Below, one piece after another: positions 12,311 through 64,000 of a stretch of 64,000 nt of DNA (position 1 is its first letter; the number at the start of each line of letters is the position of its first letter). The stretch is taken from contig VXPQ01000032.1 in assembly GCA_009839485.1 (NCBI GenBank), forward strand, positions 90,982-154,981, written 5' to 3'. Below the pieces are notes generated by a model. That model was not told where the DNA came from and ran no database searches. It saw nothing but the letters and a program-made list of their open reading frames with translations. The translations under genes were made by a program, and so were the position numbers. This DNA is from Bacteroidetes bacterium SB0662_bin_6. Lineage in GTDB: Bacteria > Bacteroidota > Rhodothermia > Rhodothermales > VXPQ01.

Positions 12311-12359
12311 GGGTTATAAGCGATTGTATAAGGGGCAAGCCCCTGCTTCGCAATGCGTA

Positions 12360-14050: not shown

Positions 14051-14055
14051 GGTTA

Positions 14056-14520: not shown

Positions 14521-14549
14521 CGTTCTTTTGCCCGGATTCAACTCAGGGT

Positions 14550-14861: not shown

Positions 14862-14919
14862 GATCCTTCCGGTCACCGCCACCGACCCATAGAGCCGGCG
14901 GCGGCTATACCTTGTTCTG

Positions 14920-37758: not shown

Positions 37759-40700
37759 ATGATAAGAAAGTCGCAAATTTCATGCCTGACACTACTACTG
37801 TTGCTGCCGATCGTAGCGACAGCCCAAAATGTGACTATATCCGGTGTCGTAACGGACACGGATAACCAGGTGCTTATCGGTGCAAACGTATCCATTACCG
37901 ATTTGCTGCTTGGTGCTTCGACAGATATTGAAGGCCGCTACTCTTTTGAGGTGCCGTCCGTTTATGCAGGACAGTCTTTCGATCTTAAGGTCCAATATAT
38001 CGGCTATTCACCGCAGACCCGGGCCGTCACCATCTCGCCCACGGCAATGACGGAGCACTTTGTGCTTGCCGAGGATTTTTTCAATCTGGATGAGGTCGTC
38101 GTAACGGGGGTGGCTGAAGCCACCCCGAAAAAGAAGCTTGCCTTCACGGTAGATCAGGTCGATAGAGACCTGGTTGAACTTGCGCCGGCGCGGAGTCCTC
38201 TGCACGGCCTGCACGGGAAAGTGGCTGGAGCCAGCGTAATTGCTCAGAGCGGACAGCCGGGTGACGGAATTTCCGTGCGGCTGCGCGGGTCCACCAGCAT
38301 TTCGGGCAGTTCGCAGCCACTCTACATCGTTGACGGTGTCATTCTCGGAGCCGATCAGGTCGACATCGATGCACTGGATATCGAGAATATAGAGATCGTC
38401 AAGGGCGCTTCCGCATCGTCACTCTACGGATCCCGCGCGCAAAACGGAGTCCTTCAAATTTCGACCAAGCGGGGCGATCACATCCCTGTAAACCAGACAC
38501 GCGTGACGATCCGTAATGAGATCGGCACGAACTTTATGCCACGCAAATTTATTCCCAACAATTCGCACAACTATCGGATGAATGCTGCCGGAACCTCTTT
38601 TGTCGATGCAGACGGGAACGATATCCCTTACGGATCCGCGACCGTCATTGACGGGAGTACAGCGGTATCCTTTTTGGACAATCCGTATCCGGGAGTAACC
38701 TATAACGCGTTCGACGAATTTTTTAATCCGGGTAATACATGGACCAATGCCATCGCAGTAAGCCGCAACACGAGAACTACCAACTTTCTTTTGTCATTTG
38801 CGAATCTGACAGAAGAAGGTATCATTGTCGGCCAGAAAGGATATAATCGAAAAAGTGTTCGCCTTAATATGGATCATCACCTGAAACGTACATGGGCTAT
38901 TTCACTCTCAAGTTTCTATTCGACCTCTACGCGTGATGCACCAAATGATGTGGATATCAATCCGTTTTTCGGCATCATGTTTACAAGTCCCGCAGTGAGT
39001 CTTTTGGAGCGGGATGAAAACGGTGAACTCAAAGTGCGCGCCGATCCCTTATCTATTGAAGACAACCCGCTCTACATTATCGAGAACGTCGATGAAGTCC
39101 AAAAACGCTCTCGTATATATGGCAACTTGCGGCAAACCTGGGAGCCTATAGACTGGTTTGACCTCGAAGCCAATCTGAGTTTCGACCGCTCGGACCGCGA
39201 TGGCCTGGAGTTTTATGACAAGGGATATCAGCAGATTGGCAACAATAGTAAGGAAGAGGGCGAAATCGAGCGGAGCAATGCCCTGTCCTCCGCCCTGAAT
39301 GCCAACGTGACGGCTTCCTTTCGCAAGCAATTCGATCGCCTGGTTGCCCGCACACAGTTTCGCTGGGCAAAGGAGGATTTCACCAATGAGGCGGAATTCA
39401 TCAGCGGCAGAGGACTCGCAGCGGCAGGACTTTCGGACCTTTCCAATATCAACACCGATGATAAAATCATCAGCTCCAGCAGTACAACGATCCGTTCCGA
39501 GGGCTTTTATGGCCTGGCAGGCGCGGACTATGCCGACCGCTACATCATCGACGCATTAGTGCGTCGCGATGGCAGCTCGCTTTTCGGTGCGGAGGAGAGG
39601 TGGCAAACCTATTTCCGCCTCAGCAGCGCATATCGCCTATCGGAAGAAACCTGGTGGCCTGCCAGGGATGCGCTTCCTGAATTCAAGCTGCGAGCTTCGT
39701 ACGGCACCGCAGGCGCACGTCCATGCTTTGAGTGCCAATACGAAACGTTTTTTCTCTCCAATGGCCAACTAAGTAAATCGACCCTTGGTAATGAACTGCT
39801 GAAACCCGAATTGCAGAAAGAAACCGAACTGGGACTGGAATTTTCTGTTTGGAATAAGGCATTTGTCGAATTGATATATGCAGATTCCAGAGTGGAAGAT
39901 CAGTTGTTGCTCGTTCCATTGTCTGCCTCAGTAGGATATGAAGGACAATGGCAAAATGCCGGAACCCTCGAGTCTAATACCATAGAGGCATCTGTCCGTG
40001 CATCGTTGTTCCGGAATGCTTCCGGCAGTCTGGATATAGGTGTTGTTTTTGATCGTACACGTCAGGAAATCATCGAGTTTTCTCCCCCGGCGTTCCGGGG
40101 AGGCCCCAAGAATGCCTTCTATATTCGGGAGGGAGAAATTCTGGGAGCCATGTACGGGGACAAGTTTCTGACGGCTCTGGACGAACTGCCCACAGGCGTT
40201 GCAGAAAATCAGTTCCAGGTTAATGATCACGGCTATGTGGTATGGGTCGGCCCGGATAATACCTATACGGACGGCATTGCCAAAAACCTTTGGGGAACTT
40301 CCAGCGACCAAATGACGACCCCCTGTGGGGACAAGTCGTACGGATGGGGCATGCCGATTCTATTCGAGAATGAAGAATGCACGGCATTCTCCAGAATTGG
40401 TAATACCCTCCCCGACTATAATCTGGGAATAAACACCACATTACGCTGGCGCGGAATCACCGTCTATATGCTCTGGAATGCACAGATAGGCGGCGATATA
40501 TACAACGCTACGGCTCAGTGGGGCTACAGGGATAACAGACATAGGGATCAGGACCAGGCAGGTAAGTCCGACGCGCTCAAGAAGACGGCCAATTACATGC
40601 AAGCGCTCTACCACGCGAACGGGACAAACAACCACTTCGTCGAAGAAGGCGACTATGTGAAGCTGCGTGAATTCACGGTGGAATATACCCTCGGCAGAGA

Positions 40701-40926
40701 GCGGCTTTTACGGATGTTCGGCAACGCATTAGGATTACATCGCGTGAGCTTTGGCATCACCGGCCGTAATCTGCTCACCTTCACAAACTATTCGGGGTTT
40801 GATCCCGAAACCGGTCGGACCAGCGAAAACGCCACGGTTGGCGGAGATGCATCGTTGTTCCGTGTGGACCAGTTTCGCTATCCGAACTACCGCAACCTTA
40901 CAGGCAGGGTCACCATTGAGTTTTGA
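37759..40926 (+). CDS. SusC/RagA-family TonB-dependent outer-membrane receptor
   Basis: 1055 aa. Signal peptide ...PIVATAQ, an N-terminal carboxypeptidase-regulatory-like domain (ISGVVTDTDNQVLIGANVSI), a plug (DEVVVTG...), a long beta-barrel and a terminal aromatic residue (...RVTIEF). Confidence 0.92.
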   Translation: MIRKSQISCLTLLLLLPIVATAQNVTISGVVTDTDNQVLIGANVSITDLLLGASTDIEGRYSFEVPSVYAGQSFDLKVQYIGYSPQTRAVTISPTAMTEHFVLAEDFFNLDEVVVTGVAEATPKKKLAFTVDQVDRDLVELAPARSPLHGLHGKVAGASVIAQSGQPGDGISVRLRGSTSISGSSQPLYIVDGVILGADQVDIDALDIENIEIVKGASASSLYGSRAQNGVLQISTKRGDHIPVNQTRVTIRNEIGTNFMPRKFIPNNSHNYRMNAAGTSFVDADGNDIPYGSATVIDGSTAVSFLDNPYPGVTYNAFDEFFNPGNTWTNAIAVSRNTRTTNFLLSFANLTEEGIIVGQKGYNRKSVRLNMDHHLKRTWAISLSSFYSTSTRDAPNDVDINPFFGIMFTSPAVSLLERDENGELKVRADPLSIEDNPLYIIENVDEVQKRSRIYGNLRQTWEPIDWFDLEANLSFDRSDRDGLEFYDKGYQQIGNNSKEEGEIERSNALSSALNANVTASFRKQFDRLVARTQFRWAKEDFTNEAEFISGRGLAAAGLSDLSNINTDDKIISSSSTTIRSEGFYGLAGADYADRYIIDALVRRDGSSLFGAEERWQTYFRLSSAYRLSEETWWPARDALPEFKLRASYGTAGARPCFECQYETFFLSNGQLSKSTLGNELLKPELQKETELGLEFSVWNKAFVELIYADSRVEDQLLLVPLSASVGYEGQWQNAGTLESNTIEASVRASLFRNASGSLDIGVVFDRTRQEIIEFSPPAFRGGPKNAFYIREGEILGAMYGDKFLTALDELPTGVAENQFQVNDHGYVVWVGPDNTYTDGIAKNLWGTSSDQMTTPCGDKSYGWGMPILFENEECTAFSRIGNTLPDYNLGINTTLRWRGITVYMLWNAQIGGDIYNATAQWGYRDNRHRDQDQAGKSDALKKTANYMQALYHANGTNNHFVEEGDYVKLREFTVEYTLGRERLLRMFGNALGLHRVSFGITGRNLLTFTNYSGFDPETGRTSENATVGGDASLFRVDQFRYPNYRNLTGRVTIEF

Positions 40927-40943
40927 ATGACGGGAGATACAAA

Positions 40944-42608
40944 ATGAACGTGTTGCGCAGCATGCGGACCGCAGTATGGATTTCCTTTCTCGTCTTCACA
41001 TGGACCGGATGTGCGGACCTGGTGGTCGAGAACGACAACAGCCCTGACAAAAGTCAGGTGCTGGCCGACCCCAACGATGTGGTCAATCTTATCGGGAGTT
41101 CCTTTCTCGACTTCTGGCGCGCCAATGTGTGGCAAAACGGGCAAATGCCCCTTACGGCAATCGCGGATGAATATTCCTATTCGTGGGCTAATTTTGCCGG
41201 ACGGCATCTCTCTTCCGAGCCACGCGTTGCTTTCGACAACAGCCCGACATTCGCCTACGCCGACGCAATGAAGGAGCCCTGGGACAATAATTATCTGGCC
41301 ATTTCGAATACCTCGGACGCGTTGTCTATCATCAACCAGGATGAGTCGGCATTCGAAGAAGCAGCCAAGCTCAAAGCGTTCGCCAGGTTTATCCAGGGTC
41401 TGTGCCATGGTTACATTGCACTGCGCTACGATCAGGGTTTTACGGTGGATGAAGATTCGGATTTGACTACGCTGGAGTTGAAACCCTACCCGGAGGTTAT
41501 GGAGTTTGCCCTTCAAAAACTGGAAGAGTCAATCGCCATAGCTAACAGCAACCCCTTCACCATTCCTGCTGAAGACGACTGGATATTTGGGCTTACTGTC
41601 ACCAATGAAGATCTGGTCCGACTGGCCCATTCCTTTATGGCGCGGTTTATTGCCTCGGTCGGACGGAGGCCTGCCGAGCGGGCAAGCACCAACTGGGCAT
41701 TGGTAATACAGCATGCCGAACAGGGCATTACGGAGGACTGGGCCCCTGTAGGAAACGATTCGGGAGAACTCGAATGGGATCCGACCAAGGCATGGGGACA
41801 AGAAGGGCGTTCATGGTCTCGCGCAGATTATCGTACGATCGGCCCTGCGGACAAATCGGGAGGTTTCCGGAACTGGCTTAACCAACCGGTTGAAGATCGT
41901 AGCGTATTTGACATTTATACTTCGGACAGGCGCATCGTGGGGCCGGAAGACGGGATGGAAACCATCGTGGCGGGCGAGCAGCGTGACAGAGCGGGTGCTC
42001 ATACAGCAGGAACCGTGCTCACCTACCCTCAGAACAGCGGAACCGACTTCGAATACTGGGGCGTTCCGGGTCCCTTTCCACCCTCTCGAGGCACCTACCA
42101 CTATTCGTCCCACACACATAAGAGATACCGTGCATATCTGGACAACGGCAACAACGGTCCCATGGTCCAATTCAAAGTAACGGAACTGGATATGCTTATT
42201 GCCGAAGGGTTGCTGCGAACCGGAGGAAGTACTGACAGAGCAGCTGAACTCATCAATAAAACGCGTGTGGAGCGGGGCCAATTGAATCCTGCTTCAGGCT
42301 CAGACGCGGTCGGTAGCCCTGACGACGATCAGAGCCCTATGGATGACGCCAGTTTATGGGCAAAACTCAAACACGAAAAAAATATAGAATGCTATCTGGC
42401 CGCAAGCGGCAGAGCGTACTTTGACAAGCGTGGTTGGGGGGACCTGGTGCCAGGAAGCCCCCTTCATTTCGCCGTACCGGGCGGTGAACTTGAAGTGCTC
42501 CAGATACCCATCTATACCTTTGGAGGACCAGGAGGTGAGGATGCAGCTTCCAAGGCGGGCCGCGGCGCCTACCGCACAAGCAACATCTACATTGAGCGTC
42601 CCAAGTGA
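40944..42608 (+). CDS. SusD/RagB-family nutrient-binding outer-membrane lipoprotein
   Basis: ATG at 40944 gives MNVLRSMRTAVWISFLVFTWTGC|ADL (lipobox). Size, position directly after susC and helical TPR-like composition fit SusD. Track ORF starts at TTG 40923. Confidence 0.85.
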   Translation: MNVLRSMRTAVWISFLVFTWTGCADLVVENDNSPDKSQVLADPNDVVNLIGSSFLDFWRANVWQNGQMPLTAIADEYSYSWANFAGRHLSSEPRVAFDNSPTFAYADAMKEPWDNNYLAISNTSDALSIINQDESAFEEAAKLKAFARFIQGLCHGYIALRYDQGFTVDEDSDLTTLELKPYPEVMEFALQKLEESIAIANSNPFTIPAEDDWIFGLTVTNEDLVRLAHSFMARFIASVGRRPAERASTNWALVIQHAEQGITEDWAPVGNDSGELEWDPTKAWGQEGRSWSRADYRTIGPADKSGGFRNWLNQPVEDRSVFDIYTSDRRIVGPEDGMETIVAGEQRDRAGAHTAGTVLTYPQNSGTDFEYWGVPGPFPPSRGTYHYSSHTHKRYRAYLDNGNNGPMVQFKVTELDMLIAEGLLRTGGSTDRAAELINKTRVERGQLNPASGSDAVGSPDDDQSPMDDASLWAKLKHEKNIECYLAASGRAYFDKRGWGDLVPGSPLHFAVPGGELEVLQIPIYTFGGPGGEDAASKAGRGAYRTSNIYIERPK

Positions 42609-42713
42609 CAGGAAGCGGATTAAACAATACGTCAAGTTGTTTCACGAAAGAGACTGACGTACCCGCGCCTCTCGCTCCTTGACATGGCCGGCCCGCGTGA
42701 TAAGGTCTTCCTC

Positions 42714-45700
42714 TTAATTACGCACGATGGTAAGATTTTTGGCCCCGGGCTCGATCGCCTCCATAGTCTCTGTACCGTCCGCCCAGCGTACCCAGACATC
42801 CTGGACCTTTCCGGCGCCATATCCCATCAACAGCGTCGTCGAAGACTGACTCCAATATCCCGACCCCGCCGACACTATCCGGACCGGTCCCCAGTCGCTC
42901 TCGCCATAGCGAAGCCGCACAAGCGCGCCTATAGCGGGCCTGCCTGATTCGCTGAGGCGAATCCGCAAGCCGGATTGCGCCCGCTTGTTCCGAAAAAGGT
43001 TCGTCTCTGCCCCGTTTTGCGTCACCACCATGTCAAGCCGCCCATCCTCGTCGTAATCGCTCGCAGCAACGGCCCGTTGTTCCCCGTATACCTTTATCCC
43101 GGACATATCTCCCCTGGCGCTCGTAAAACTACCGTGGCCATTGCCCATCAGCCAAAGTCCCCGGCCCGCATCAAGGCGAGGCGTACCAGACGGCAGGGCA
43201 AACATGTTCTGGCCGATAAAAAGGTCCTCGTTCCCATCGGAATTCAGGTCGCCGACCACCATGCCGAAACCCGCTGTCCATTGTGCCTCAACGGGAAGCG
43301 GATGTACCTCAAAACCGGATTCTCTATTGAGAAAGACCGTGGAAGCAAGCCATGTCGCGTTCTTGTATGCGCCTCGGGCCAACCGAGGGCCGATCATTTC
43401 GTCAAGGGTTGAAGCTGCATACTGACGAAAGGTGCGCACTCGCCGGCGCACCAGAGGCAATCCGGCCGAAAGGGCAACCAGTTTGCGTGTTGGAACGTAC
43501 CCCCCCACAACCTGCTCATATCTGGCCTCCACGATATCCATCCGGTTGTCCAGATCGAAATCTCCGTAGTACAGTCGCAAGTCGTGCCCGTCACGTTCCG
43601 GTCGACCATACGGCGAATTCCATCCCCAGTTCGTCGCGACAATGTCCAGGCGCCCATCCCCATTGAAGTCCCCCAGTCCAACGCCTTGCCACCACCCCTT
43701 GTAGTTCTCCAATCCATAGGAGGCCGTGACATCTTCAAACTTGCCTGCGCCCAGCCCTCGAAACACCTGTATGGAACCCCATTCGGTAGCCAGTATCACA
43801 TCCTGGTTGCCATCTCCGTCGAGATCGCCAATAGCTATTCCACTCACAAGACCGGGACGGTCAAAGACCTGTGAGCTTTCATCGTACACAAAGCGATCTT
43901 CTTCATTCCAATACACCACCGATGAAGCTGCTTCAGGATAGCGTCCGGGAACATGCCGCCCCCCGGCAAGGATATCCATATCTCCATCTCCATCAAGGTC
44001 CCCAAGCGAAAGAGGCCCTACACTCGAAGAGCCGAATGGAAGACGCTGAATCCGTTCAAAGGAGCCTTCCGGTCGAACACGATAGATATCGACGGTAGAG
44101 GGAGCATACGGCCGCGCTTCATAGCCTGATATGCCGACCGCTACGAGCGCCCCTGCCTCGACACGCTCCAATACAACAATCCCCGTTTGATCCCCCGGGC
44201 TTTTTTCACCGACGGACCGCGGGGCTTCCAGGCGGCCGGTCCCGGTGTTACGAAGTAACGTCAGGCGCCCTCCACGGCCATTCCCTATGAGCAAATCATC
44301 ATCTCCATCCCCGTCCACATCAGCCCATGCCGCTGCGGGCCCCTGTCGGCTAAGTTTCCATGGAAGAAGAGGCTGCTCCCGAAAATCGTCAAAGAAGGGC
44401 TCGTGATGTTCATGCACAATCCGGATTTTTTCAAAGTATGGATCGGGTTCGGTTAAATGTTCATTCGTCGTACGTCGAACGACAGAAGATTCAAATATTT
44501 CATAATGCCTGTTGGCCTGCACCCTCTCGACAAGCGTACGCCCGCCACTGCGCCACAACACTTCAAGTCGCATATCTTGTGCATCGCCGGCGGCAAAAGA
44601 AACCAACGTCTCACTGGAAGAAAGGTATTGCCCCCCGGCAATGATTTCCTTTTCCTGCACCGGCAAGCCCCCGCCCGAAAGGCGGACTTTCGCTCCGATA
44701 CCCTTCGTGTTCGGAAATAATCCCCGCAGGCTTACCGCCACACGGGAATTGGATGTATGGTTGCGAAACAGGGCGGCGGGCCGGTTCAGGCGACTGACAA
44801 CCACATCAAGATCGCCGTCACGATCCAGATCACCCAAAGCCAGCCCGTGGGAGACATCGGCTTCATAGCCCAGGCCCCAACCATCGGCAATTTCTTCAAA
44901 GGTCCCGTCTCCCCGATTACGAAAAGCGATGTTTTTGAGATCAAGGGGTGGAAACAGCAGCACTTCATCCCGCCACGCTTCTCCGGAGGATATCGTCGCC
45001 ATGCGCATGCGCGTGTCCGCATCCATGGCGTCATAGGCATGCCCCGTGGCCAGCAGCAGATCTTCCCAGCCATCCAGGTCCACATCCAGAAAAGCACTGC
45101 CCCAGGTCCATTCGGAGGCATGAATTCCGGCCATGTGGGCAATCTCGGAAAAGGCGCCGTCTCCCCGGTTGAGAAAGAGCGTGTTTTGCATCTCCTGGGG
45201 ACGGTTGTCTATGTCTCCTGGATCGGATAATTCGGGAAACTGCAGGCCGGGCTGCTGCCTGTGGCGTCGTCGATGATCACGGCTAAGCATGTCTGCCTGA
45301 AAAAGATCCGCATCGCCGTCTCTGTCCATGTCGGAAACAGCCACAGCCATAGTAGACTGGCTCGTCTTGCGGAAAGTCAGGCGAGGCACTGCCCTGAAAG
45401 TCCCCTGCCCATCGCCAAGCCAGAAATGATCCGGACTCTCAAAATCATTGCATACCAGCAGGTCAGGCGCCCCGTCCCCATTGATATCCTGAAACCGCAC
45501 AGTCAAAGCCCAATCACGAGGCGCCTCCTGCAATGCCCGACCCTCTTCGTCAAGGAATGCTCCCCCGGTAAAGGACTGAGGGGTAAAGCGCCCTGCGCCG
45601 TCATTGATATAGTAGCCATCCACCTCACCGCTTTCGAAACGCATCACGCGATCCTTTTGCACACGAACGACATAATGCCGATCAAAAGGCGGTGTAATTA

Positions 45701-46388
45701 CGTACCTGTTGCCCTCTCGCTTTACCACGCGTTCAAAAGCGCGCTCATGCGGGGGATACATATCCCGCACCGTCCGGGTCTTGTAGTTTCCGACGTACAA
45801 ATCAAGATCGCCGTCCCCGTCCGTGTCCGCCAGCGCCACCGTAGTACTTCCCCGGCGAGAAAACAGGCCAAGCGAATCGGGGGATTCCACGAAACGGCCC
45901 TGCCCGTCATTGAAAAACACGGCATTGGGTCCCCCCATAGCCGTAACCAGTACATCCAGATCCCCGTCTCCATCCACATCCGCCATTGCAGTTCCGGTCG
46001 AGAAGCGATCCGGCGCTGCCACACCCGCACGCTGCGTAATGTCTTCGAAGCGCCACCCGCCCAGATTTCGATAAAGCACATTTGGCCCACTGAGGCGAGT
46101 CAGATAAATATCCGGCCATTCGTCTCCGTCCACATCCCCTACAGCCACGCCCGATCCGTTCAGGTAGTGACGATTCGCCAGAAATTCCTTCTCCTCGATG
46201 CTGTTGATCGCATCTACTCCGGTGCGGCGCTGCCCCATAGGATCAAACCCGGCGGTCACAGAACCGGAGACATGCAAATTTCGCCATCGATGGCTCGATT
46301 CTTCATGCCATAGGTTATCGGAATCCGGACTACAGCCCCCAAAACAGAGAAGAATCGCAGCAGACAAACAGGCTCTAAGCAGATTCAT
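42714..46388 (-). CDS. FG-GAP/VCBS-repeat protein with C-terminal ASPIC/UnbV domain (CRTAC1-like), lipoprotein
   Basis: 1224 aa. Signal plus lipobox ...LLCFGGC|SPD. More than 12 repeats of the D-x-D/N-G-D-G-x-x-D calcium-binding FG-GAP type (GDVDGDEWPDIY, DVDGDGDLDV, DTDGDGDLDLY...). C-terminus ...VRLRYGESDWGPVRIVSAGSGYWSQSSTTLLMGYG is typical of ASPIC/UnbV. Confidence 0.88.
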   Translation of the reverse strand: MNLLRACLSAAILLCFGGCSPDSDNLWHEESSHRWRNLHVSGSVTAGFDPMGQRRTGVDAINSIEEKEFLANRHYLNGSGVAVGDVDGDEWPDIYLTRLSGPNVLYRNLGGWRFEDITQRAGVAAPDRFSTGTAMADVDGDGDLDVLVTAMGGPNAVFFNDGQGRFVESPDSLGLFSRRGSTTVALADTDGDGDLDLYVGNYKTRTVRDMYPPHERAFERVVKREGNRYVITPPFDRHYVVRVQKDRVMRFESGEVDGYYINDGAGRFTPQSFTGGAFLDEEGRALQEAPRDWALTVRFQDINGDGAPDLLVCNDFESPDHFWLGDGQGTFRAVPRLTFRKTSQSTMAVAVSDMDRDGDADLFQADMLSRDHRRRHRQQPGLQFPELSDPGDIDNRPQEMQNTLFLNRGDGAFSEIAHMAGIHASEWTWGSAFLDVDLDGWEDLLLATGHAYDAMDADTRMRMATISSGEAWRDEVLLFPPLDLKNIAFRNRGDGTFEEIADGWGLGYEADVSHGLALGDLDRDGDLDVVVSRLNRPAALFRNHTSNSRVAVSLRGLFPNTKGIGAKVRLSGGGLPVQEKEIIAGGQYLSSSETLVSFAAGDAQDMRLEVLWRSGGRTLVERVQANRHYEIFESSVVRRTTNEHLTEPDPYFEKIRIVHEHHEPFFDDFREQPLLPWKLSRQGPAAAWADVDGDGDDDLLIGNGRGGRLTLLRNTGTGRLEAPRSVGEKSPGDQTGIVVLERVEAGALVAVGISGYEARPYAPSTVDIYRVRPEGSFERIQRLPFGSSSVGPLSLGDLDGDGDMDILAGGRHVPGRYPEAASSVVYWNEEDRFVYDESSQVFDRPGLVSGIAIGDLDGDGNQDVILATEWGSIQVFRGLGAGKFEDVTASYGLENYKGWWQGVGLGDFNGDGRLDIVATNWGWNSPYGRPERDGHDLRLYYGDFDLDNRMDIVEARYEQVVGGYVPTRKLVALSAGLPLVRRRVRTFRQYAASTLDEMIGPRLARGAYKNATWLASTVFLNRESGFEVHPLPVEAQWTAGFGMVVGDLNSDGNEDLFIGQNMFALPSGTPRLDAGRGLWLMGNGHGSFTSARGDMSGIKVYGEQRAVAASDYDEDGRLDMVVTQNGAETNLFRNKRAQSGLRIRLSESGRPAIGALVRLRYGESDWGPVRIVSAGSGYWSQSSTTLLMGYGAGKVQDVWVRWADGTETMEAIEPGAKNLTIVRN

Positions 46389-46942: not shown

Positions 46943-47839
46943 TTGCAAAATATTCATCTCGAACGGCTGGAGTCCGAAGCCATATACATCATGCGTGAAA
47001 CGGCCGCACAATTCGAACGGCCATGCCTGATGTTCTCGGGTGGTAAGGATTCTCTCGTCATGGTGCACCTCGCCCGGAAAGCGTTCTGGCCAGCGCCTAT
47101 TCCGTTCCCCCTCTTACATGTGGACACCGGGCACAATTTCCCGGAAACGCTTGAACTGCGAGACAGGCTGGTAAAAAATATCGGCGCGAAATTGATCGTC
47201 CGAACCGTACAGGAATCCATAGACCGGGGGCGTGTCCAGGAAGAAGAGGGGCCGAACGCAAGCCGCAACATGCTGCAAATAACCACCCTGCTCGATGCGC
47301 TGGAAGAACTCAAGGTGGACGGTGCTCTCGGCGGTGCACGGCGCGACGAGGAAAAGGCCCGCGCCAAGGAGCGTTTCTTCTCGCACCGGGACAGTTTTGG
47401 GCAATGGGATCCCAAGAACCAGCGCCCGGAACTGTGGCATATTTTCAATGGAAGAAAGCGTCCTGGAGAGCATTTCAGAATTTTCCCATTGAGCAACTGG
47501 ACGGAACTGGACATATGGGGGTACGTCCTCATGGAAAGCATTGAGATTCCGTCCATGTACTTCGCCCATGAACGCGAAATTGTAGACCGGAACGGTGTGC
47601 TTCTCGCAAAATGTGACTATATCTCTTTGCTCCATGGCGAAACCTGGGAACAGGAAACGATCCGTTTTCGGACCGTGGGCGACATGACATGCACAGGTGC
47701 AATCCGGTCCACCGCTGCAACATTGGAAGAAATCATTGAGGAGGTTGGATCAGCTCGCGTCACCGAACGCGGAGCACGCGCCGACGACATGCGCTCGGAG
47801 GCTGCAATGGAGGACCGCAAAAAACAAGGCTATTTCTAA
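46943..47839 (+). CDS. cysD: Sulfate adenylyltransferase subunit 2
   Basis: ...[32 protein letters not shown]... (PAPS-reductase-fold PP-loop). 298 aa with a TTG start at 46943. Confidence 0.93.
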
Positions 47840-47907
47840 CGATCCCGGACGGATCGAAACTTGCCCGCATCCACTCGAATACCGGCTCTTTCGACCACTG
47901 CCTTTCA

Positions 47908-49791
47908 ATGGATTTACTACGATTTACCACAGCAGGCAATGTAGACGACGGCAAATCGACGCTGATCGGCCGCCTCCTCTACGATTCGCGAGCCATTCAC
48001 CTGGATCAATACGAAGCCATTGAGCGCGCCAGTGCAAGCCAGGGCAACGGCGCAATCAATCTGGCCTTGCTCACAGACGGACTGCGCGCAGAGCGCGAGC
48101 AAGGGATCACTATCGACGTGGCATACCGGTATTTTTCCACCGCGCAGCGAAAATTCATCATTGCCGATACACCGGGACATATCCAGTATACACGCAATAT
48201 GGTAACCGGGGCATCGACCGCCGAACTGGCTATCATTCTGATCGATGCACGTAATGGCGTATTGCAACAATCACGCCGGCACGGATTCATTGCTTCGTTG
48301 CTCCAGATTCCCCACATACTGGTGGCGATCAATAAAATGGATCTCGTGGGGTACTCCGAAGAAACATATCGGGAAATCGTCGCCGACTACAGGGAATTCG
48401 TCCGGAGAGTAGATATCGACGATGTCGTTTTCATCCCCATTTCCGCACTGGCGGGGGACAATGTCGTCGAACAAAGCGATCAGATGGACTGGTACAGGGG
48501 ACCGACCATTCTGCACCACCTTGAAACGGTAAAGGTGGGCGAAGGACGTAACGTGGTCGATTTCCGGTTCCCGGTGCAATACGTAATACGCCCGAACCAG
48601 AATTTTCGCGGGTATGCGGGGCGCGTCGTATCGGGGTCCATTGCGCCGGGCGAGGACATCGTCGTGCTTCCGTCCGGTCGGGAAAGCCGTGTGCATTCCA
48701 TCGTCTATATGGAGGACAATATTCAACGGGCCCGCGCAGGCGATTCGGTCGTAATTACGATGGAAGACGACATCGATATCGGGCGTGGAGACATGATCGT
48801 CCGGCGCCGCAACCAGCCCCAGATCACTCGCAGTATCGACGCCGATATATGCTGGATGAGCGAGCAGCCGATGCAAACGAATCGGCGATGGATTCTTCAG
48901 CATACCACCCGAAACATTCAGGCAGTCGTCGGTAATGTGATCTATCGCATGAATGTCGATACACTCCATCGCGAAACAGCAGACACCTTCCGTCTGAACG
49001 ACATCGGACGAATCGAATTTGAATTGGCCGACCCGATTTTCGTCGATGCGTATCGGGTCAACCGGGAAACCGGAAGTTTCATCCTGATAGATCCGGAAAC
49101 CAACAATACAGTGGCTGCCGGCATGATCCGTGGCGCAGCGCAGCACGTTCCGCCGGTCGGACGCGTTGCTACCATGGAACGTCCTGTTTCCCCGGGGGTC
49201 GTGTGGACCGAATTGTACATTCCGAGGGAAGAACGCGAAAAACAACAGGGACACCAGGCCGCAGTAATCTGGCTGACAGGACTTTCCGGATCAGGCAAAT
49301 CGACCATTGCACGAGCGCTGGAAAAACGTCTCTTCGAGCATGGTGTGCGTACCATGTCGATCGACGGCGACCAGGTACGTCACGGGCTGTGTGGCGATCT
49401 GAGTTTCTCCGAGGCGGATCGGACCGAAAACATTCGCCGCGTCAGCGAAGCGGCCCGATTGTTCTTCGAACAGGGCAGCATTACCATCTGCGCTCTCGTA
49501 TCACCTTACCGGCAAGATCGCGCGTACCCCAGGCACATCATTCCGGAAAAACATTTCTTTGAAGTGCACGTGGATTGCGACCTCGAGATATGCAAGGATC
49601 GCGATCCGAAAGGATTATACAGGAAAGCGCTCGACAACGAAATTCCCGAATTCACGGGCATTTCGGCGCCGTACGAACCCCCGGAAAATCCGGAACTGCT
49701 ACTACAGACCCATGTCCTGTCCGTAGAGGAATGCGTCGACCGGATCATTGCCCTGCTCGTAACGCAAGGCATCATGAAGGACATGTCATAG
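47908..49791 (+). CDS. cysNC: Bifunctional sulfate adenylyltransferase subunit 1 / adenylyl-sulfate kinase
   Basis: N-terminal GTPase (AGNVDDGKSTLIGRLL, DTPGH, NKMD) fused to a C-terminal APS kinase (VIWLTGLSGSGKSTIA...). 627 aa. Confidence 0.95.
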   Translation: MDLLRFTTAGNVDDGKSTLIGRLLYDSRAIHLDQYEAIERASASQGNGAINLALLTDGLRAEREQGITIDVAYRYFSTAQRKFIIADTPGHIQYTRNMVTGASTAELAIILIDARNGVLQQSRRHGFIASLLQIPHILVAINKMDLVGYSEETYREIVADYREFVRRVDIDDVVFIPISALAGDNVVEQSDQMDWYRGPTILHHLETVKVGEGRNVVDFRFPVQYVIRPNQNFRGYAGRVVSGSIAPGEDIVVLPSGRESRVHSIVYMEDNIQRARAGDSVVITMEDDIDIGRGDMIVRRRNQPQITRSIDADICWMSEQPMQTNRRWILQHTTRNIQAVVGNVIYRMNVDTLHRETADTFRLNDIGRIEFELADPIFVDAYRVNRETGSFILIDPETNNTVAAGMIRGAAQHVPPVGRVATMERPVSPGVVWTELYIPREEREKQQGHQAAVIWLTGLSGSGKSTIARALEKRLFEHGVRTMSIDGDQVRHGLCGDLSFSEADRTENIRRVSEAARLFFEQGSITICALVSPYRQDRAYPRHIIPEKHFFEVHVDCDLEICKDRDPKGLYRKALDNEIPEFTGISAPYEPPENPELLLQTHVLSVEECVDRIIALLVTQGIMKDMS

Positions 49792-49800
49792 GATACTCTG

Positions 49801-51570
49801 ATGCCCTGGCAAGCCTGGTTCACCCTTATAATCATTCTGGTTATGATCGTGGCCCTTGTGCGCGAATGGGCACGGGTGGATGTAACCATTCTGTTGGCGT
49901 TGAGCACCCTTCTCCTGGCCGGAGTAGTAACCCCTATTGAAGCTTTTTCGGGGGTTGCATGGGAAGCGGTCATTACCATTGCCGCCCTGTACGTGGTAGC
50001 CGCCGGCGTTCATCAAACAGGGCTGCTCACCTGGATAGATCGCTGGCTGGTGCAGTCCGGCGGCACAGTGACATCGCTTCTTTTCCGTGTTATGACGCCT
50101 GCCGCAGTGTTGTCCGCCTTTCTGAACAACACCCCGGTGGTCGCCATGCTCATACCTCGAATGCAGGCAGTGGCCCGAAAAACCGGCATATCGGTATCGA
50201 AGTTGTTGATGCCTCTCTCTTTCGCTGCGATTGCAGGAGGGATGATCACGCTTATCGGCACCTCGACGAACATCATTGCTTCAGGACTTATTCGCGAGGC
50301 CGGCCTGCAGGAATTCGGGCTGTTTGAATTTGCCTGGATAGGTCTGCCCGCGGCCGTCCTGACCGTGGCGTACCTGTCTCTTGTCGGGCATCGGCTAATG
50401 CCGGACACGACCCCCGGCGACCGGGACAAGACGGATACACTGAATTACCGGTTTCGCCTGTGCGTACCTCCCGGCTCACCCCTCGCGGGCATGTCGATCC
50501 AAAAAGCGAATCTCCGGTCACTGGGCGACGCCTACCTCGTATATATCCGGCGTGGTCAGGATACAATTGGCCCGGTCGCTCCGGAAGAGATCATCCGGGA
50601 AGCAGACATTCTCACGTTTATCGGGCGTACGGATGCCAGGGAGCGTCTGCTTCGCGAGACCGATTTTTTTGCACATCCCACCAAAAACAAGCAGGATAAC
50701 CAGGAAACGGACCCCCCTCTGTTTCAAGCAGTGATTTCAATAAATTCGACCCTGGCCGGCAAAACGCTGAAGGACGTCAGCTTCCGGGAAAAATACGAGG
50801 GGGTTGTACTCGCCATCCATCGCAAGGACGAATCGATCCGTGGAGCGCTCGGCAAGGTTCCCCTCAAACCGGGCGACCTTCTTATCATCGAAGCTCAAAA
50901 GGGGTTTGACCGCCGCTGGAGCCAAAGCGAGGGCGATTTTTACCTTGTCACGCAAGATATTCGGAAGCAACAGCCGATAGATGAAAGAACAGGGCTGGTT
51001 CTGGCCATGCTGGCCATACTGATCACCTTGCATATCGTCGGTGTGCTCCCCCTCTCCGCAGCAGCCTTTACAGGTGCACTGGGCATGATTCTGATCGGTT
51101 TTTTGCGCGGCACCCAGTTGCGCCAATCCGTGGATATCGGCGTTATCCTGACGATTACAGGAGCTTTCGGTATCGGACACGCTGTCCAGACAAGTGGTCT
51201 GGCAACAGGACTGGGACACACCATCGCAACGATATTACCCGGCCAGCATCCTCTCATAGCGTTGCTGTTTCTGTACCTTGGCACCATGCTCGTCACAGAA
51301 ATCATCACGAACAGCGCCGCGGTTGTTATCATGATTCCCATTGCCCTGGTGACAGCCGTCGATATCGGTATGGAACCGCGCGCCGTAGCTCTGGCGGTGA
51401 CAATAGCGGCGTCGGCAAGCTTCCTTTCCCCGATCGGGTATCAAACGAATCTGATGGTGATGGGCGCTGGCGGATACCGGTTCAGGGATTATTTTCGGGC
51501 CGGGCTGCCCGTAAGCATCGCTGTCATGGCCATCACACTGGCCGCCGTGTATCTGAAGTGGCTCGGATAA
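49801..51570 (+). CDS. SLC13/DASS-family anion permease with two central TrkA-C (RCK_C) domains
   Basis: 589 aa. Polytopic N- and C-terminal halves flank two RCK_C-like segments (...PGSPLAGMSIQKANLRSLGDAYLVYIRRGQDTI... and ...NSTLAGKTLKDVSFREKYEGVVLAIHRKDE...). Starts 10 nt after cysNC. Confidence 0.85.
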   Translation: MPWQAWFTLIIILVMIVALVREWARVDVTILLALSTLLLAGVVTPIEAFSGVAWEAVITIAALYVVAAGVHQTGLLTWIDRWLVQSGGTVTSLLFRVMTPAAVLSAFLNNTPVVAMLIPRMQAVARKTGISVSKLLMPLSFAAIAGGMITLIGTSTNIIASGLIREAGLQEFGLFEFAWIGLPAAVLTVAYLSLVGHRLMPDTTPGDRDKTDTLNYRFRLCVPPGSPLAGMSIQKANLRSLGDAYLVYIRRGQDTIGPVAPEEIIREADILTFIGRTDARERLLRETDFFAHPTKNKQDNQETDPPLFQAVISINSTLAGKTLKDVSFREKYEGVVLAIHRKDESIRGALGKVPLKPGDLLIIEAQKGFDRRWSQSEGDFYLVTQDIRKQQPIDERTGLVLAMLAILITLHIVGVLPLSAAAFTGALGMILIGFLRGTQLRQSVDIGVILTITGAFGIGHAVQTSGLATGLGHTIATILPGQHPLIALLFLYLGTMLVTEIITNSAAVVIMIPIALVTAVDIGMEPRAVALAVTIAASASFLSPIGYQTNLMVMGAGGYRFRDYFRAGLPVSIAVMAITLAAVYLKWLG

Positions 51571-62268: not shown

Positions 62269-62447
62269 TTTCTGCTCGACACATGCAGAATACAATGCAG
62301 GCTCCTGGCAAGACGATATTTCAGGATACTCTATTTCTTGCCATGGCAACCCTGGGAACATTGCATCTGACCGTGGCGGATGCTACCATGAAAAATGATC
62401 GGTTTCCTTGAAAACCGGACCCCAATCGCATACATGCGGAGGTGAAC

Positions 62448-62975
62448 ATGCACAGAGCACGATCTGTATGGCAAAGGTTTGCGACCCTGACGGCAGTAGT
62501 CATACTTGGGGCGTGGTGCCCTGAAGTGCTGGGTCAGATACAACCATTGGAAGGCGCACCCCTGGCAATGCTGGAACAAGGGCACGTAGAACAGGAACTG
62601 GCGCCGTACGGACCGGGGATGGCCCGGGACAGCCTGCTTCCCGTATCGTCTGTCTTTGTGGAGGCCACAACGGTAGAAATACAGACACTATACGAGAAAG
62701 ACGAACAGCGGGCGGAGTTTAACTACCGAGGCCGGACTATGGTAATCGGCGGCACGGTGTACAGGGCAGAGGGCGATTATATCAGATTCATCAACTACAA
62801 TATAGTCCGGTTCGACGGACGCCGGAGCAAAGGCGTAAAGTGCTACTTTTCCGAGCGACAGAAGCCGCTTGTGAATATCCTCAAAAGAGGGGACCGGATC
62901 GCTATGGAAGGGGTTGTCCTGGGGTATGGCCCGCTCCGGGAGTACATCGAGATCGACCCCTGCATCATACTGTGA
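62448..62975 (+). CDS. Secreted hypothetical protein with OB-fold (tRNA_anti-like) C-terminal domain
   Basis: ATG at 62448 is preceded by GGAGG at a 6-nt spacing. The signal-like N-terminus is MHRARSVWQRFATLTAVVILGAWC... The C-terminus ...YRGRTMVIGGTVYRAEGDYIRF...VKCYFSERQKPLVNILKRGDRIAMEGVVLG resembles OB-fold putative-lipoprotein domains. Confidence 0.6.
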   Translation: MHRARSVWQRFATLTAVVILGAWCPEVLGQIQPLEGAPLAMLEQGHVEQELAPYGPGMARDSLLPVSSVFVEATTVEIQTLYEKDEQRAEFNYRGRTMVIGGTVYRAEGDYIRFINYNIVRFDGRRSKGVKCYFSERQKPLVNILKRGDRIAMEGVVLGYGPLREYIEIDPCIIL

Positions 62976-63087
62976 TCGGACTGTCGGTCCGGGGTTTTCG
63001 AGTATAAGTTCCCTATAATCCCCTGAAAATCATCTTCAAACCGGGCATTATGTCCTATTACAGCAGATTATATGGGGATTTTTGTGC

Positions 63088-63205
63088 AAAAATCGACAAA
63101 AATGTCCATTTTCGAGCAAAAATAGCACAAAATGAACTAAAAATGGCCAAAAATTGGGAAAAATAGCTGAAAACGGGTACAAAGGCGGCCAAAAACAACA
63201 AAAAA
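63088..63205. repeat. Array of helically phased A-tracts (predicted intrinsically curved, AT-rich DNA)
   Basis: A4-A6 runs start at 63088, 63098, 63118, 63129, 63139, 63149, 63159, 63170, 63181, 63191 and 63200. Spacings are 10, 20, 11, 10, 10, 10, 11, 11, 10 and 9 bp. A T4 run at 63109 fills the one skipped turn. The stretch is visibly AT-rich in an otherwise GC-rich window. Confidence 0.85.
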
Positions 63206-63236
63206 CGCCGGCTGTAATAACAACCGGCGTTTTTCC
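63197..63236 (-). terminator. Intrinsic (bidirectional-looking) terminator; strongest on the minus strand
   Basis: Stem ACGCCGG (63205-63211) pairs with CCGGCGT (63224-63230) around a 12-nt loop. On the minus strand it is followed by UUUUUUGUUGUUUUU. On the plus strand it is followed by UUUUU. Confidence 0.7.
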
Positions 63237-63742
63237 TGCCTGGATGTGGGATAAACCCACAAATTTACATGCTCACTGGTATTCCTATCCGCGACCGGCC
63301 TCCCGCGATTCCTTCACATCGCCGAAGCGACATTCCGAAAACGGGATTCGGGAGGCCTGACTCCCGCGCCGTCGCACACTGACCGAAGTCAGTTTCGACA
63401 CCACGTCGTGACACATGCCCGGCTACCGGTTTCCCGATTGCTGGACAGCTGAACCGCATGGGCAGACGGTTCAAGCGCCACAGGCCTTCTGGTTACCCAC
63501 GCTTCCTGTATCCACACACTCTCCACAGCCAACGCTCCCCGACTTCCTTCACCGCGCTTGCACACTCCACGTCGGCATTTCTGCCGCCGCTTCACCGTGT
63601 GCTTGCGCTCCGGAAAGCCGGCTTTGTCAACCGCTTCATCGAGCCTATGCATACCCCGCACCGGAGTGAGGGGGACGGACGCACGGGCGCCTCATGCAGC
63701 CAGAGTACTCAGTCGCTTCAAGGAACGGTGCCCGAAGGCACT
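63198..63742 (-). ncRNA. Candidate ~545-nt highly structured non-coding RNA of unknown family
   Basis: Bounded by a near-consensus promoter (63749-63777) and the terminator at 63197-63236. Many stable capped hairpins are present: GUGCC-UUCG-GGCAC (63727-63742), CGGCA-GAAA-UGCCG (63573-63586) inside an extended 55-nt helix (63554-63608), UGAACCG-10 nt-CGGUUCA (63450-63473), CUGAC-UUCG-GUCAG (63379-63392), and UCGC-UUCG-GCGA (63319-63330) inside a 9-bp long-range helix GGCCUCCCG/CGGGAGGCC (63297-63357). All six-frame ORFs here are Arg/Cys/Pro/His-rich and not protein-like. Confidence 0.55.
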
Positions 63743-63748
63743 GAATGC

Positions 63749-63777
63749 ATTATAAGCGCCCGCATCAGCCGCGTCAA
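63749..63777 (-). promoter_or_regulatory. Near-consensus sigma70-type promoter with AT-rich UP-like tract
   Basis: The reverse strand reads TTGACG (63777-63772), exactly 17 nt, then TATAAT (63754-63749). The upstream sequence GAAATAAATTTTGTTC is AT-rich. The predicted start is an A at about 63742. Confidence 0.6.
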
Positions 63778-63850
63778 GACCCTGAACAAAATTTATTTCA
63801 CAAGTTGTTAACAAAGTGTACACCGTTCGAAAAAAGGGTGTGTATAAACG

Positions 63851-63880
63851 AAAAGCCCGACCTGGTATACAGGCCGGGCT
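63851..63880 (-). terminator. Intrinsic terminator of an unidentified minus-strand transcript entering from the right edge
   Basis: The reverse strand reads AGCCCGGCCUG-uauac-CAGGUCGGGCU (10/11 bp) followed by UUUUCGUUUAUA. Confidence 0.55.
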
Positions 63881-64000
63881 CCCGGTGCCCACTAAAGCGC
63901 GACTGATACCCCGCGGCCCGGTTAACAGGAGGAAATAACCGTGCCGGAAGGGGCCTCCAGCGCATGAGGTAGGGACAAGGTAAGACATAGCAATGAATAA

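Follow-up and report, generated by a model that had tools for sequence, protein, structure and literature searches.

A structured RNA family of the Rhodothermales and its candidate small RNA partner

Introduction

Few large structured RNAs are, to our knowledge, known in bacteria, and each of these (RNase P, tmRNA, OLE, GOLLD, ROOL) opened new biology. The OLE gene is linked to oapA, the gene of a protein partner, and we know of no DnaA boxes associated with it. GOLLD and ROOL are often associated with prophages or tRNAs and form homo-oligomers. In the ColE1 system RNA I is encoded in cis as a full antisense transcript, and RNA II serves as the unterminated precursor of the primer at the plasmid origin. 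Known sponge RNAs are short, often derived from mRNAs or spacers, and carry one site. A two-RNA conformational switch or ribonucleoprotein scaffold of the kind discussed below has, as far as we know, no described precedent in bacteria. The abstract of one OLE study describes that RNA within a ribonucleoprotein complex and as containing a kink turn that serves protein recognition (PMC9723947).

The locus described here lies close to one end of the window, the whole stretch of 64,000 nucleotides of DNA that was analysed, where a first-pass annotation had placed a stand-alone structured RNA of no recognisable class.

Results

The large RNA is encoded on the minus strand, with RNA position n corresponding to window coordinate 63743-n, and the proposed unit is delimited by three features.

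63198 to 63742, minus strand: large structured RNA, 545 nt, its ends and expression predicted from sequence signals only
63749 to 63777, minus strand: sigma-70-type promoter of the large RNA, TTGACG-17 nt-TATAAT, with 11 of 12 consensus matches
63200 to 63235, minus strand: intrinsic terminator ending the large RNA, 16 stem pairs and then a U-run, in a sequence that is bidirectional

The TTGACG-17-TATAAT promoter of the first-pass annotation is confirmed on the minus strand at 63777-63749, and its position makes the A at 63742 the predicted start of the large RNA. Two promoter-like sites occur in the 1.6-kb region compared with 1.2 +/- 1.0 in shuffled sequences, so a single site by itself is weak evidence; 57 of 71 distinct related loci, however, have the pattern TTGACN-17-TANNNT at the equivalent position. 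The proposed terminator is likewise in place, with its 16-pair stem and U-run at 63235-63200, and terminators are present in 65 of the 79 extracted family loci. The next gene 3' of the large RNA (62442-62975, plus strand), encoding a tRNA_anti-like OB fold, is convergent and the large RNA is terminated before it, in agreement with the earlier view that this is not a leader or riboswitch. Having a promoter and an intrinsic terminator to itself and no co-oriented gene downstream, the large RNA is organized as a stand-alone RNA gene.

The sequence of the large RNA is conserved in relatives across one bacterial order, and at least 69 species-level genomes carry it in single copy, every one of them labeled Rhodothermales, Rhodothermia, Bacteroidetes or unclassified. 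The length of family members ranges from 0.4 to 1.06 kb (2.6-fold), which places the 545 nt of the window at the short end, and no internal repeats or extra copies of the large RNA were found within the window. Guide RNAs of mobile elements (omega RNA, bridge RNA, retron RNA) were considered and rejected, the RNA being single copy in 69 genomes with rhomboid, purQ-like, GT2 and GNAT genes as its neighbors. A metagenome scan gained four informative variants, about half of its 120 hits being chance matches in coding DNA. The literature search on Rhodothermales RNAs and on structured RNAs associated with DnaA boxes returned nothing relevant.

No Rfam 15 family, with SRP, HEARO and the cobalamin riboswitch among those covered, reaches its gathering score in the whole window, and at E<=10 the region returns only terminator-driven noise below half of the gathering score. 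The same holds at the gathering score for 11 related loci, of which L010 has no hit at E<=1, and ARAGORN finds no tRNA or tmRNA gene in L001 (7800-9000), so the earlier statement that the RNA belongs to no recognisable class stands. The reading as a divergent form of some known class (RNase P, tmRNA, 6S, OLE, GOLLD, ROOL, raiA, group I/II intron) would account for the size and the ornate fold and for nothing else, and is extremely improbable given the negative covariance-model and ARAGORN results.

The region contains short, overlapping ORFs in several frames. Among close relatives the variable columns divide by position modulo 3 as 39/33/37 and the indels measure 1, 2, 25, 37 and 58 nt, so that the large RNA has no coding signal, neither codon periodicity nor indels in multiples of three, as expected from the claim that no protein-like ORF is present. 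Protein coding would agree with stop-free stretches that are longer than in shuffled sequences (median 169 versus 116 codons) and with the 222-amino acid ORF that a gene caller placed across the L012 homologue. The 2.6-fold difference in family length is a further argument against it, and a cis-regulatory leader is contradicted by the terminator after the large RNA and by a downstream gene that is convergent or variable. A coding region or leader has next to no probability on these data.

The minus strand folds at -256.3 kcal/mol (z = -5.7) compared with -199.8 kcal/mol (z = -3.4) for the plus strand. The UUCG- and GAAA-capped hairpins of the first-pass annotation are located as three UUCG loops (RNA positions 7-10, 356-359 and 417-420) and two GAAA loops (162-165 and 310-313), and UUCG tetraloop words are 15-fold enriched in 61 family members. 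The elements of the fold are as follows.

63728 to 63741, minus strand: H1, 5'-terminal UUCG hairpin, RNA 2-15, 100% paired in 34 sequences
63690 to 63726, minus strand: invariant 5' strand of the large RNA, which holds the next five elements
63726 to 63721, minus strand: P1a, GUUCCU
63716 to 63711, minus strand: P1b, GCGAC(U)
63716 to 63708, minus strand: helix II site, GCGACUGAG
63706 to 63702, minus strand: P2 5' strand, ACUCU
63697 to 63690, minus strand: helix I site, GCAUGAGG
63483 to 63701, minus strand: arm A, a rod of variable length, about 225 nt here and reaching about 740 nt in relatives
63482 to 63407, minus strand: arm B, whole
63449 to 63474, minus strand: arm B hairpin, loop core GCCCAU invariant, covariation at 8 of 8 pairs of the stem
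63464 to 63458, minus strand: arm B loop UGCCCAU, the helix III site
63365 to 63405, minus strand: arm C, UUCG-capped hairpin of the minimum-free-energy fold, RNA 338-378, kept in close relatives
63364 to 63360, minus strand: P2 3' strand, GGAGU, pairing with the P2 5' strand
63357 to 63297, minus strand: arm D, GGCCUCCCG...CGGGAGGCC, with a UUCG tip and a base 92% paired
63296 to 63291, minus strand: P1b', GGUCGC, closing-helix 3' strand, P1b being 83% paired
63286 to 63281, minus strand: P1a', AGGAAU, closing-helix 3' strand
63245 to 63261, minus strand: additional 3' hairpin confined to the close clade of the window

The 5' and 3' ends are paired through P1a and P1b, which with P2 close a multi-arm junction of arms A-D, and arm A is an expandable rod. 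The transcript opens with a UUCG hairpin, as had been described, in which covariation appears as UA to CG and CG to UA double changes (H1). In P1b the changes are one-sided GC to GU with CG and AU exchanged at one pair, and in arm D GC and AU are exchanged at two base pairs and 3 of 3 tip pairs covary. P2 also covaries, the helix formed with its own partner averaging 6.8 pairs compared with 5.4 across lineages, and the arm B hairpin has 87.5% of cells paired compared with 33-47% in slid controls. Alignment A3 is 89.2% paired compared with 81.7% in shuffles, with 0 of 500 shuffles reaching this value, and contains 14 pairs with changes on both sides, its slid controls being 32-47% paired. Compensatory changes in alignment A3, the arm B hairpin and P2 are thus above the shuffled and slid controls, and covariation in the aligned sequences supports the 5' hairpin, the 5'/3' closing helix, P2, the GCCCAU-loop hairpin and the GGCCUCCC/GGGAGGCC arm. 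In L040 and L059, H1 is expanded into a tandem array.

Kink-turn-like modules were defined by a 3-nt bulge and tandem sheared G.A/A.G pairs with a canonical and a non-canonical stem at the sides, and only structure-consistent modules were retained. The generic scan is not enriched (913 hits versus 785 in shuffles), and the candidates are three nested modules and one alignable module. The three modules in arm A are formed by RNA 99-108/219-225, 141-152/175-183 and 186-195/128-138; the alignable module has a 3-nt bulge of variable sequence, an invariant GA/GA and covariation in both flanking stems. The promoter, the terminator, order-wide conservation, covariation and the absence of an Rfam match support the earlier reading of a stand-alone structured RNA, and it is almost certain that the large RNA is a genuine structured RNA founding a new family of the Rhodothermales.

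A second transcription unit is predicted directly upstream on the same strand.

63846 to 63970, minus strand: candidate partner small RNA, about 120 nt, directly upstream of the large RNA
63969 to 63962, minus strand: small RNA segment 1, CCUCAUGC
63906 to 63899, minus strand: small RNA segment 2, UCAGUCGC
63892 to 63886, minus strand: small RNA segment 3, GUGGGCA
about 63885 to 63846, minus strand: small RNA terminator hairpin and U-run

At the level of sequence signals this is a gene of about 100-120 nt with its own promoter and terminator, the promoter extending past the end of the window, and a small RNA with all three segments is found in nearly all loci. Alternatively, one precursor of about 0.9-1.4 kb could contain both RNAs as domains, the helices then being long-range and intramolecular; this would fit the finding that nearly all loci have the two on one strand, separated by about 100-200 nt. 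In nearly all loci, however, the small RNA ends in a strong GC-rich terminator hairpin followed by a run of 4-6 U residues, a near-consensus promoter precedes the large RNA, and conservation in the spacer is limited to DNA-type signals (boxes, promoter). One common transcript accordingly has little probability.

The small RNA is complementary to the three most conserved segments of the large RNA. It is colinear antisense to large-RNA nucleotides 26-53, with its own hairpin substituting for the complement of the P2 strand, and its (A/G)UGGGCA is complementary to the arm B loop. For the predicted helices I, II and III, pairing across 54 distinct loci amounts to 87-89% compared with 18-52% in slid controls, the helix I and II strands on the large-RNA side being fixed by the search pattern. 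At the ninth pair of helix II, 32 loci have C:G and 6 have U:A, and the last pair of helix I is formed in 44 of 54 loci compared with 33.3 expected; for each, 0 of 2000 permutations that ignore phylogeny reach the observed pairing. At its ends helix III covaries weakly, with 127 and 638 of 2000 such permutations reaching the observed pairing. Rhodocaloribacter litoris has GCGAUGGAG in the large RNA and CUCCGUCGC in the small RNA, so that a U-A pair becomes G-C and the second change is a wobble, and in L213 nine pairs are retained by rearrangement. Lineages without the UGCCCAU hairpin in the large RNA also have a small RNA without AUGGGCA. The change in L148 is uncompensated (large RNA GCGAUUGAG, small RNA CUCAGCCGC) and leaves one A.C mismatch, the clade of the window has A opposite G at the ninth pair of helix II, and a recognisable small RNA was not found in L209. 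The helices of the window itself are short (8, 8 and 7 pairs), with one 8-mer match expected by chance, and the case for pairing therefore rests on family-wide conservation. Conserved complementarity with compensatory changes, as in trans-encoded base-pairing RNAs, is found across the family, apart from L148 and with the large-RNA strands pattern-fixed. Pairing of the large RNA with the small RNA is likely to be real, and the large RNA is probably not a solitary actor and has a base-pairing partner.

The rhomboid gene and the small RNA gene are conserved neighbors, with the large RNA usually downstream of the rhomboid gene, which lies on the conserved side of the large RNA in 46 of 61 loci. 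Conservation does not extend to the OB-fold gene on the other side, the synteny put forward for checking in the first-pass annotation, and what lies downstream in relatives is DUF1801 only, a GT2 gene or some other gene. The rhomboid locus of Rhodothermus sp. has no intergenic gap. In the close relative L007 an LRR gene is present in place of both RNAs, from which the pair may be dispensable. The small RNA of L084 reads CCUCACGC, and 10 of 10 contigs with the rhomboid gene of this locus stop at the large RNA promoter.

Between the two predicted genes, upstream of the -35 element of the large RNA, DnaA-box-like sites are present.

63794 to 63847, minus strand: DnaA-box-like sites TTATACACA and TGTGAAATA

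The first site (63847-63839) is a perfect match to TTATNCACA and the second (63802-63794) has two mismatches to TGTGNATAA. Family-wide, DnaA-box-like 9-mers are enriched 47-fold at -100 to -50 and 17-fold at -150 to -100, with at least one such site in 65 of 72 loci. The sites thus form a cluster across the family, the window itself having one perfect box and one with two mismatches, and DnaA binding is predicted from the consensus only. Over the whole window 39 boxes occur compared with 29 expected, which is no global enrichment, and another repeated box, CCGTTATTG, lies beside the small RNA promoter. On these matches the chances that DnaA controls the large RNA are about even.

The strong and position-specific enrichment, together with perfect TGTGGATAA boxes in several loci, would also suit an oriC or a datA/DARS-like DnaA-titration element, whose transcripts would act through transcription or R-loops and not through their folds; parA and parB at a distance of 5-7 kb, a phased A-tract region at 63060-63200 and a GC skew that is negative over the entire window point the same way. 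However, the strand-specific covariation, which includes G-U pairs, and the closed 5'/3' pairing indicate selection on an RNA fold. Seven loci with flanks of about 5-15 kb show no GC-skew sign change at the locus, both flanks being slightly negative in six of them and L010 running from -0.09 to +0.005, and the flanking genes converge on the locus and do not diverge. No dnaA is present among the ORFs scanned (37.8-64 kb), and the A-tract region is not seen in L008, L010 or L012 and lies about 600 nt away from the boxes. An origin or titration element is therefore very unlikely.

Discussion

The reading preferred here, with somewhat better than even confidence, is that the large RNA is a stand-alone, trans-acting and highly structured RNA, a short-form member of an unclassified Rhodothermales family, working with the small RNA as a two-RNA switch or scaffold. 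The small RNA would dock on the large RNA through three helices, with helix I formed by CCUCAUGC.GCCU and AGGC.GCAUGAGG, helix II by CUCAGUCGCG and CGCGACUGAG, and helix III by a loop kiss between the small RNA and the arm B loop. Together with P2 and the small RNA hairpin these would build an intermolecular four-way junction. The small RNA GUCGCGU duplicates the large RNA's own 3' strand, and helix II and P1b share nucleotides, so that docking must displace or pre-empt the closing helix. The pair would then act as a two-RNA conformational switch or a bipartite scaffold. More speculatively, the kink-turn-like modules of arm A may recruit protein, and DnaA on the box array upstream of the -35 element may set the level of the large RNA.

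The complementarity data are equally compatible with a decoy, in which the small RNA is an mRNA regulator with three seeds and the large RNA titrates it, its fold serving stability. The small RNA has the classic layout for this role, a 5' seed, a hairpin, a single-stranded linker and a Rho-independent terminator, and the upstream boxes of the two genes differ, suggesting independent regulation. Against this, the large RNA retains a covarying architecture of 0.4-1 kb, in which the docking site has a competitor in the closing helix, whereas known sponges are short and simple, and the colinear antisense around P2 gives a precise four-way junction geometry. The decoy is on balance unlikely, and a switch or bipartite scaffold as opposed to a simple decoy falls slightly short of an even chance. 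The complete proposal, a bipartite device in which an RNA of 0.4-1 kb is contacted at three points by one of about 100 nt, the two forming a four-way junction and the closing helix being displaced, with ties to DnaA and replication, is advanced more tentatively.

The family is restricted to one order and has a predicted built-in partner, the docking geometry of which can be predicted and is open to compensatory mutation. Arm A is modular, with about three-fold length variation and kink-turn-like candidates for protein binding. The DnaA-box array at the promoter hints that a structured RNA is connected with the control of replication, and DnaA dependence, if true, would tie production of the large subunit to replication status. 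Roseithermus sacchariphilus and Rhodocaloribacter litoris are cultured hosts with complete genomes, which makes the family directly testable.

Among the known systems, the OLE RNA (RF01071) resembles the large RNA as a stand-alone RNA of about 600 nt with many conserved hairpins and a function that was long obscure. There is no match in sequence or structure, OLE belongs to another phylum (Bacillota), and the OLE abstracts mention no partner small RNA, whereas the large RNA has a candidate partner. GOLLD and ROOL are also large, ornate, bacterial and variable in length; unlike them the large RNA is single-copy, chromosomal and syntenic with the rhomboid gene, and has no covariance-model match. 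The ColE1 RNA I/RNA II pair is similar in that a structured RNA of about 550 nt is bound in its 5' part by a small one of about 100 nt, through loops and a single-stranded segment, its binding decides the folding of RNA II, and DNA signals of replication initiation are nearby in both systems. The small RNA described here is in contrast tandem-encoded and would pair through three short segments, and the long RNA has a terminator and a closing 5'/3' helix, at a locus with no skew-marked origin. Sponges of the chb-ChiX and SroC-GcvB type share the feature that one RNA bears sites complementary to the seeds of a small RNA, but the large RNA has three such sites on a covarying scaffold of 0.4-1 kb. 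The T-box, finally, is a structured RNA that recognises a second RNA at several points, including a loop-loop or loop-strand contact; it is a cis-acting leader sensing tRNA charging, whereas the large RNA is stand-alone and its candidate partner is a dedicated small RNA.

Transcription Unit and Fold of the Large RNA

The large RNA is a 545-nt unit on the minus strand of the window, running from 63742 to 63198 so that RNA position n corresponds to window position 63743-n, and is bounded by the following elements.

Elements of the large RNA unit
63777-63749, minus strand: promoter TTGACG-17-TATAAT, 11 of 12 consensus matches
63235-63200, minus strand: terminator ending the unit, 16-pair stem with a U-run
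62442-62975, plus strand: OB-fold tRNA_anti-like protein gene, the next gene, convergent with the large RNA

The promoter, the dedicated terminator and the convergent next gene are all present as described in the first-pass annotation, whose observation as a whole is correct as written. The promoter places the inferred start at A63742, and 57 of 71 distinct loci have a promoter of the form TTGACN-17-TANNNT. The spacer that separates the bidirectional terminator from the OB-fold gene holds ~130 bp of A5-6 tracts with ~10-11-bp phasing (63060-63200), which look like intrinsically bent DNA and are not seen in the related loci L008, L010 or L012. The ORFs in the large RNA region are short and overlapping, in line with the earlier remark that none is protein-like. 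Variable columns split 39/33/37 by phase, giving no codon periodicity, and indels measure 1, 2, 25, 37 and 58 nt; the region is therefore non-coding.

The 545 nt fold on the minus strand with -256.3 kcal/mol (z = -5.7), and the complementary strand folds much worse (-199.8 kcal/mol, z = -3.4). The minimum-free-energy fold begins with a 5' UUCG hairpin (H1), followed by nucleotides 17-32 paired with 447-462 (P1a and P1b, joining the 5' and 3' ends), which together with the short helix P2 (37-41 with 379-383) close four arms, A-D. UUCG-loop words are 15-fold over-represented in the family. Covariation, proposed earlier as the check on the helices, is found above shuffled or slid controls in H1, arm B, arm D and P2. 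The first alignment, in which the 5' block of 34 sequences was fused to the P2'/arm D/P1' block, has 89.2% of cells paired compared with 81.7% in shuffles (0 of 500 reach it), with both-sided changes at 14 pairs and pairing falling to 32-47% when the partner strand is slid. H1 pairs in 100% of cells and shows double changes, and arm D has a GC to AU switch at two pairs of its base and covariation at three of three pairs of its tip. The arm B hairpin, whose loop core GCCCAU is invariant, covaries at all eight pairs and is 87.5% paired, compared with 33-47% when slid, and P2 occurs in the coherent variants ACUCU/GGAGU, AAACUCU/AGAGUUU, UGAGUCUC/GAGACUCG and AUCUCU/AGAGAU. The changes in P1b are mainly one-sided, GC to GU, because its 5' strand was fixed by the search pattern, with a CG/AU exchange at one pair; the one-sided changes fit an RNA on the minus strand. 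The fold of the large RNA is under selection.

In the window, arm A has three internal loops that are nested and kink-turn-like in form; in each, one strand consists of a canonical stem, a 3-nt bulge and GA, and the opposite strand carries (G)GA followed by a stem. One module can be aligned across clades (CACAC-GGU-GA...GGA-GUGUG in the window; GCUC-NNN-GA...GA-GAGC in L008, L013 and L063), with GA/GA invariant and the bulge and both flanking stems changing. This is likely a kink-turn signature, graded below proof because a generic kink-turn scan gives no enrichment over shuffles. Longer family members carry repeats of the modules, suggesting a candidate protein-binding scaffold of variable valency.

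Distribution and Novelty

The window matches the Rhodothermales metagenome-assembled genome GCA_009836085.1. The first relatives' loci were retrieved via the neighbouring GNAT-like protein and carry the same RNA, with 87% identity to the window in L004 and 69% in L006; in L008, L012 and L010 (Rhodothermaceae bacterium RA) it is recognisable at a length of ~1 kb. Conservation in relatives, for which the first-pass annotation had called, extends to 69 genomes with a single copy each, found by exact match to the invariant 5' motif with one genome per species and all labelled Rhodothermales, Rhodothermia, Bacteroidetes or unclassified, Roseithermus sacchariphilus among them. The length ranges from 401 to 1062 nt (median 765), and nearly all of the added sequence separates the 5' block from a conserved hairpin located ~200 nt before the 3' end. 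Of the 61 loci with enough DNA, 46 have a co-oriented rhomboid protease gene upstream; the OB-fold gene, suggested earlier as a syntenic marker, is no conserved neighbour in the relatives' loci.

Rfam 15 gives no match at gathering score in the whole window, and at E<=10 the area 62900-64000 returns solely terminator look-alikes below half their thresholds. L010 is without a match at E<=1, as are ten further loci at gathering score. ARAGORN finds no tRNA or tmRNA, and full-text literature searches return no paper describing such an RNA. The impression of an RNA of no recognisable class is thereby upheld, and the large RNA is a genuine structured RNA outside the Rfam 15 families and not found in the searchable literature.

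Several loci depart from the common arrangement. The RNA of Rhodothermaceae bacterium RA is nearly identical to that of R. sacchariphilus (L010 12810-13060 compared with L016) apart from a ~190-nt insertion exactly within the invariant UGCCCAU loop; it has no Rfam match, group I introns included, and could be an intron-like or mobile element in a functional loop. In two Rubricoccaceae-type genomes (L040 and L059) at least 10 tandem ~33-nt units, each a UUCG hairpin, replace the single 5' hairpin in the 330 nt upstream of the 5' motif. Ten independent contigs with one rhomboid allele (L084-L094) all end ~300 nt past the gene, exactly at the large RNA promoter, which points to an assembly-breaking repeat there. 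A close relative whose GNAT protein is 84% identical (L007) has a gene for a 1128-aa LRR/T9SS-tail protein instead of both RNAs (11143-14958), and a Rhodothermus sp. (L083 5612-5671) has no gap after the rhomboid gene; some lineages may have lost the pair or moved it elsewhere. In one relative (L006 12778-13706) the stretch separating the RNA locus from the rhomboid gene holds small ORFs and a fragmentary AAA_21/AAA_15 ATPase ORF, which suggests a variable insertion spot. Elsewhere in the window, at 46943-51570 and 37759-46388 and unrelated to the large RNA, lie a sulfate-assimilation set (PAPS reductase-like, CysN/C-like GTPase-APS kinase, CitMHS/TrkA-C transporter), a TonB-dependent receptor and a 1224-aa FG-GAP/ASPIC protein.

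A Probable Partner Small RNA

Probable partner gene
63970-63846, minus strand: small RNA, a conserved unit in the gap from the rhomboid stop codon to the large RNA promoter; fold z = -3.5

The small RNA unit has a promoter-like TTGNNN-17-TATNTT, a predicted transcript of ~90-125 nt and a strong terminator at its end. Three segments are complementary to the large RNA: CCUCAUGC(N)GCCU at the 5' end to AGGC(U)GCAUGAGG (about 42-53, helix I), CUCAGUCGCG past a variable hairpin to CGCGACUGAG (about 26-36, helix II) and, after it, (A/G)UGGGCA to the UGCCCAU loop (279-285, helix III). The three sites are the most conserved stretches of the large RNA, and in 54 distinct loci the helices are 87-89% paired compared with 18-52% when slid. 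Because the core strands hardly vary and two are fixed by the search pattern, the informative evidence sits at helix edges and in rare variants. At the ninth position of helix II, 32 loci have C:G and 6 have U:A, and the end pair of helix I forms in 44 of 54 loci, where 33.3 would be expected; none of 2000 permutations attains the observed pairing in either case. In Rhodocaloribacter litoris, missed by the search pattern, large RNA GCGAUGGAG faces small RNA CUCCGUCGC, a G-C replacing a U-A pair and a second change giving a wobble. A coordinated rearrangement leaves L213 with 9 pairs, L122 has a G.U pair, and nine lineages with no UGCCCAU hairpin in the large RNA also have a small RNA without AUGGGCA. 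Against the pairing stand an uncompensated A.C mismatch in L148, the lack of a recognisable small RNA in L209, weak covariation at the ends of helix III, and helices of 8, 8 and 7 pairs in the window itself, not significant alone. On balance, the large RNA probably has a dedicated RNA partner.

DNA Boxes Upstream of the Two Promoters

Box-like sites
63794-63847, minus strand: a perfect box at 63847-63839, plus a weaker one
L008 16480-16540, L012 16120-16190, L010 13930-14000, L082 5640-5700: copies of CCGTTATTG

An array of TGTGGATAA/TTATNCACA boxes, 47-fold enriched across the family, lies directly upstream of the -35 element of the large RNA, often as direct repeats ~11-12 bp apart with one inverted box; TGTGGATAA is perfect in several loci. 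The density of 9-mers at most one mismatch away from TTATNCACA is 23 per kb between -100 and -50 of the large RNA start and 8.3 per kb between -150 and -100, with a background of 0.49 per kb (72 distinct loci). By the established consensus we take these 9-mers to be DnaA boxes, making the array a putative set of replication-initiator sites. The locus is probably not oriC itself, as GC skew shows no sign change there in seven loci, the flanking genes run toward it and no dnaA gene was found nearby among the ORFs scanned between 37.8 and 64 kb; with parA and parB 5-7 kb away and skew negative over the whole window, an origin a little beyond the locus is possible. The different box CCGTTATTG flanks the small RNA promoter, one copy abutting the -35 element and the other ~55-75 bp further upstream, and may be a regulator site.

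Proposed Two-RNA Mechanism

The small RNA is a colinear antisense of nucleotides 26-53 of the large RNA, save the complement of the P2 strand, in whose place stands its own hairpin, so that docking would create a four-way junction of helix I, helix II, P2 and the small RNA hairpin. Helix III, as a kiss with the arm B loop, would tie in that arm. Since helix II and P1b occupy the same large RNA nucleotides, and the small RNA's GUCGCGU has the same sequence as the 3' strand of the large RNA itself, either helix would preclude the other. Toeholds may be provided by the unpaired J1/2 UGA(G), by the helix I site and by the loop; alternatively, the small RNA may trap the 5' strand co-transcriptionally, with the competing 3' strand still 0.4-1 kb away. 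In the main rival reading the large RNA acts simply as a decoy, titrating a small RNA that targets mRNAs. The docking geometry and the exclusion between helix II and P1b make a two-RNA switch or bipartite scaffold the preferred reading, offered here as a testable proposal.
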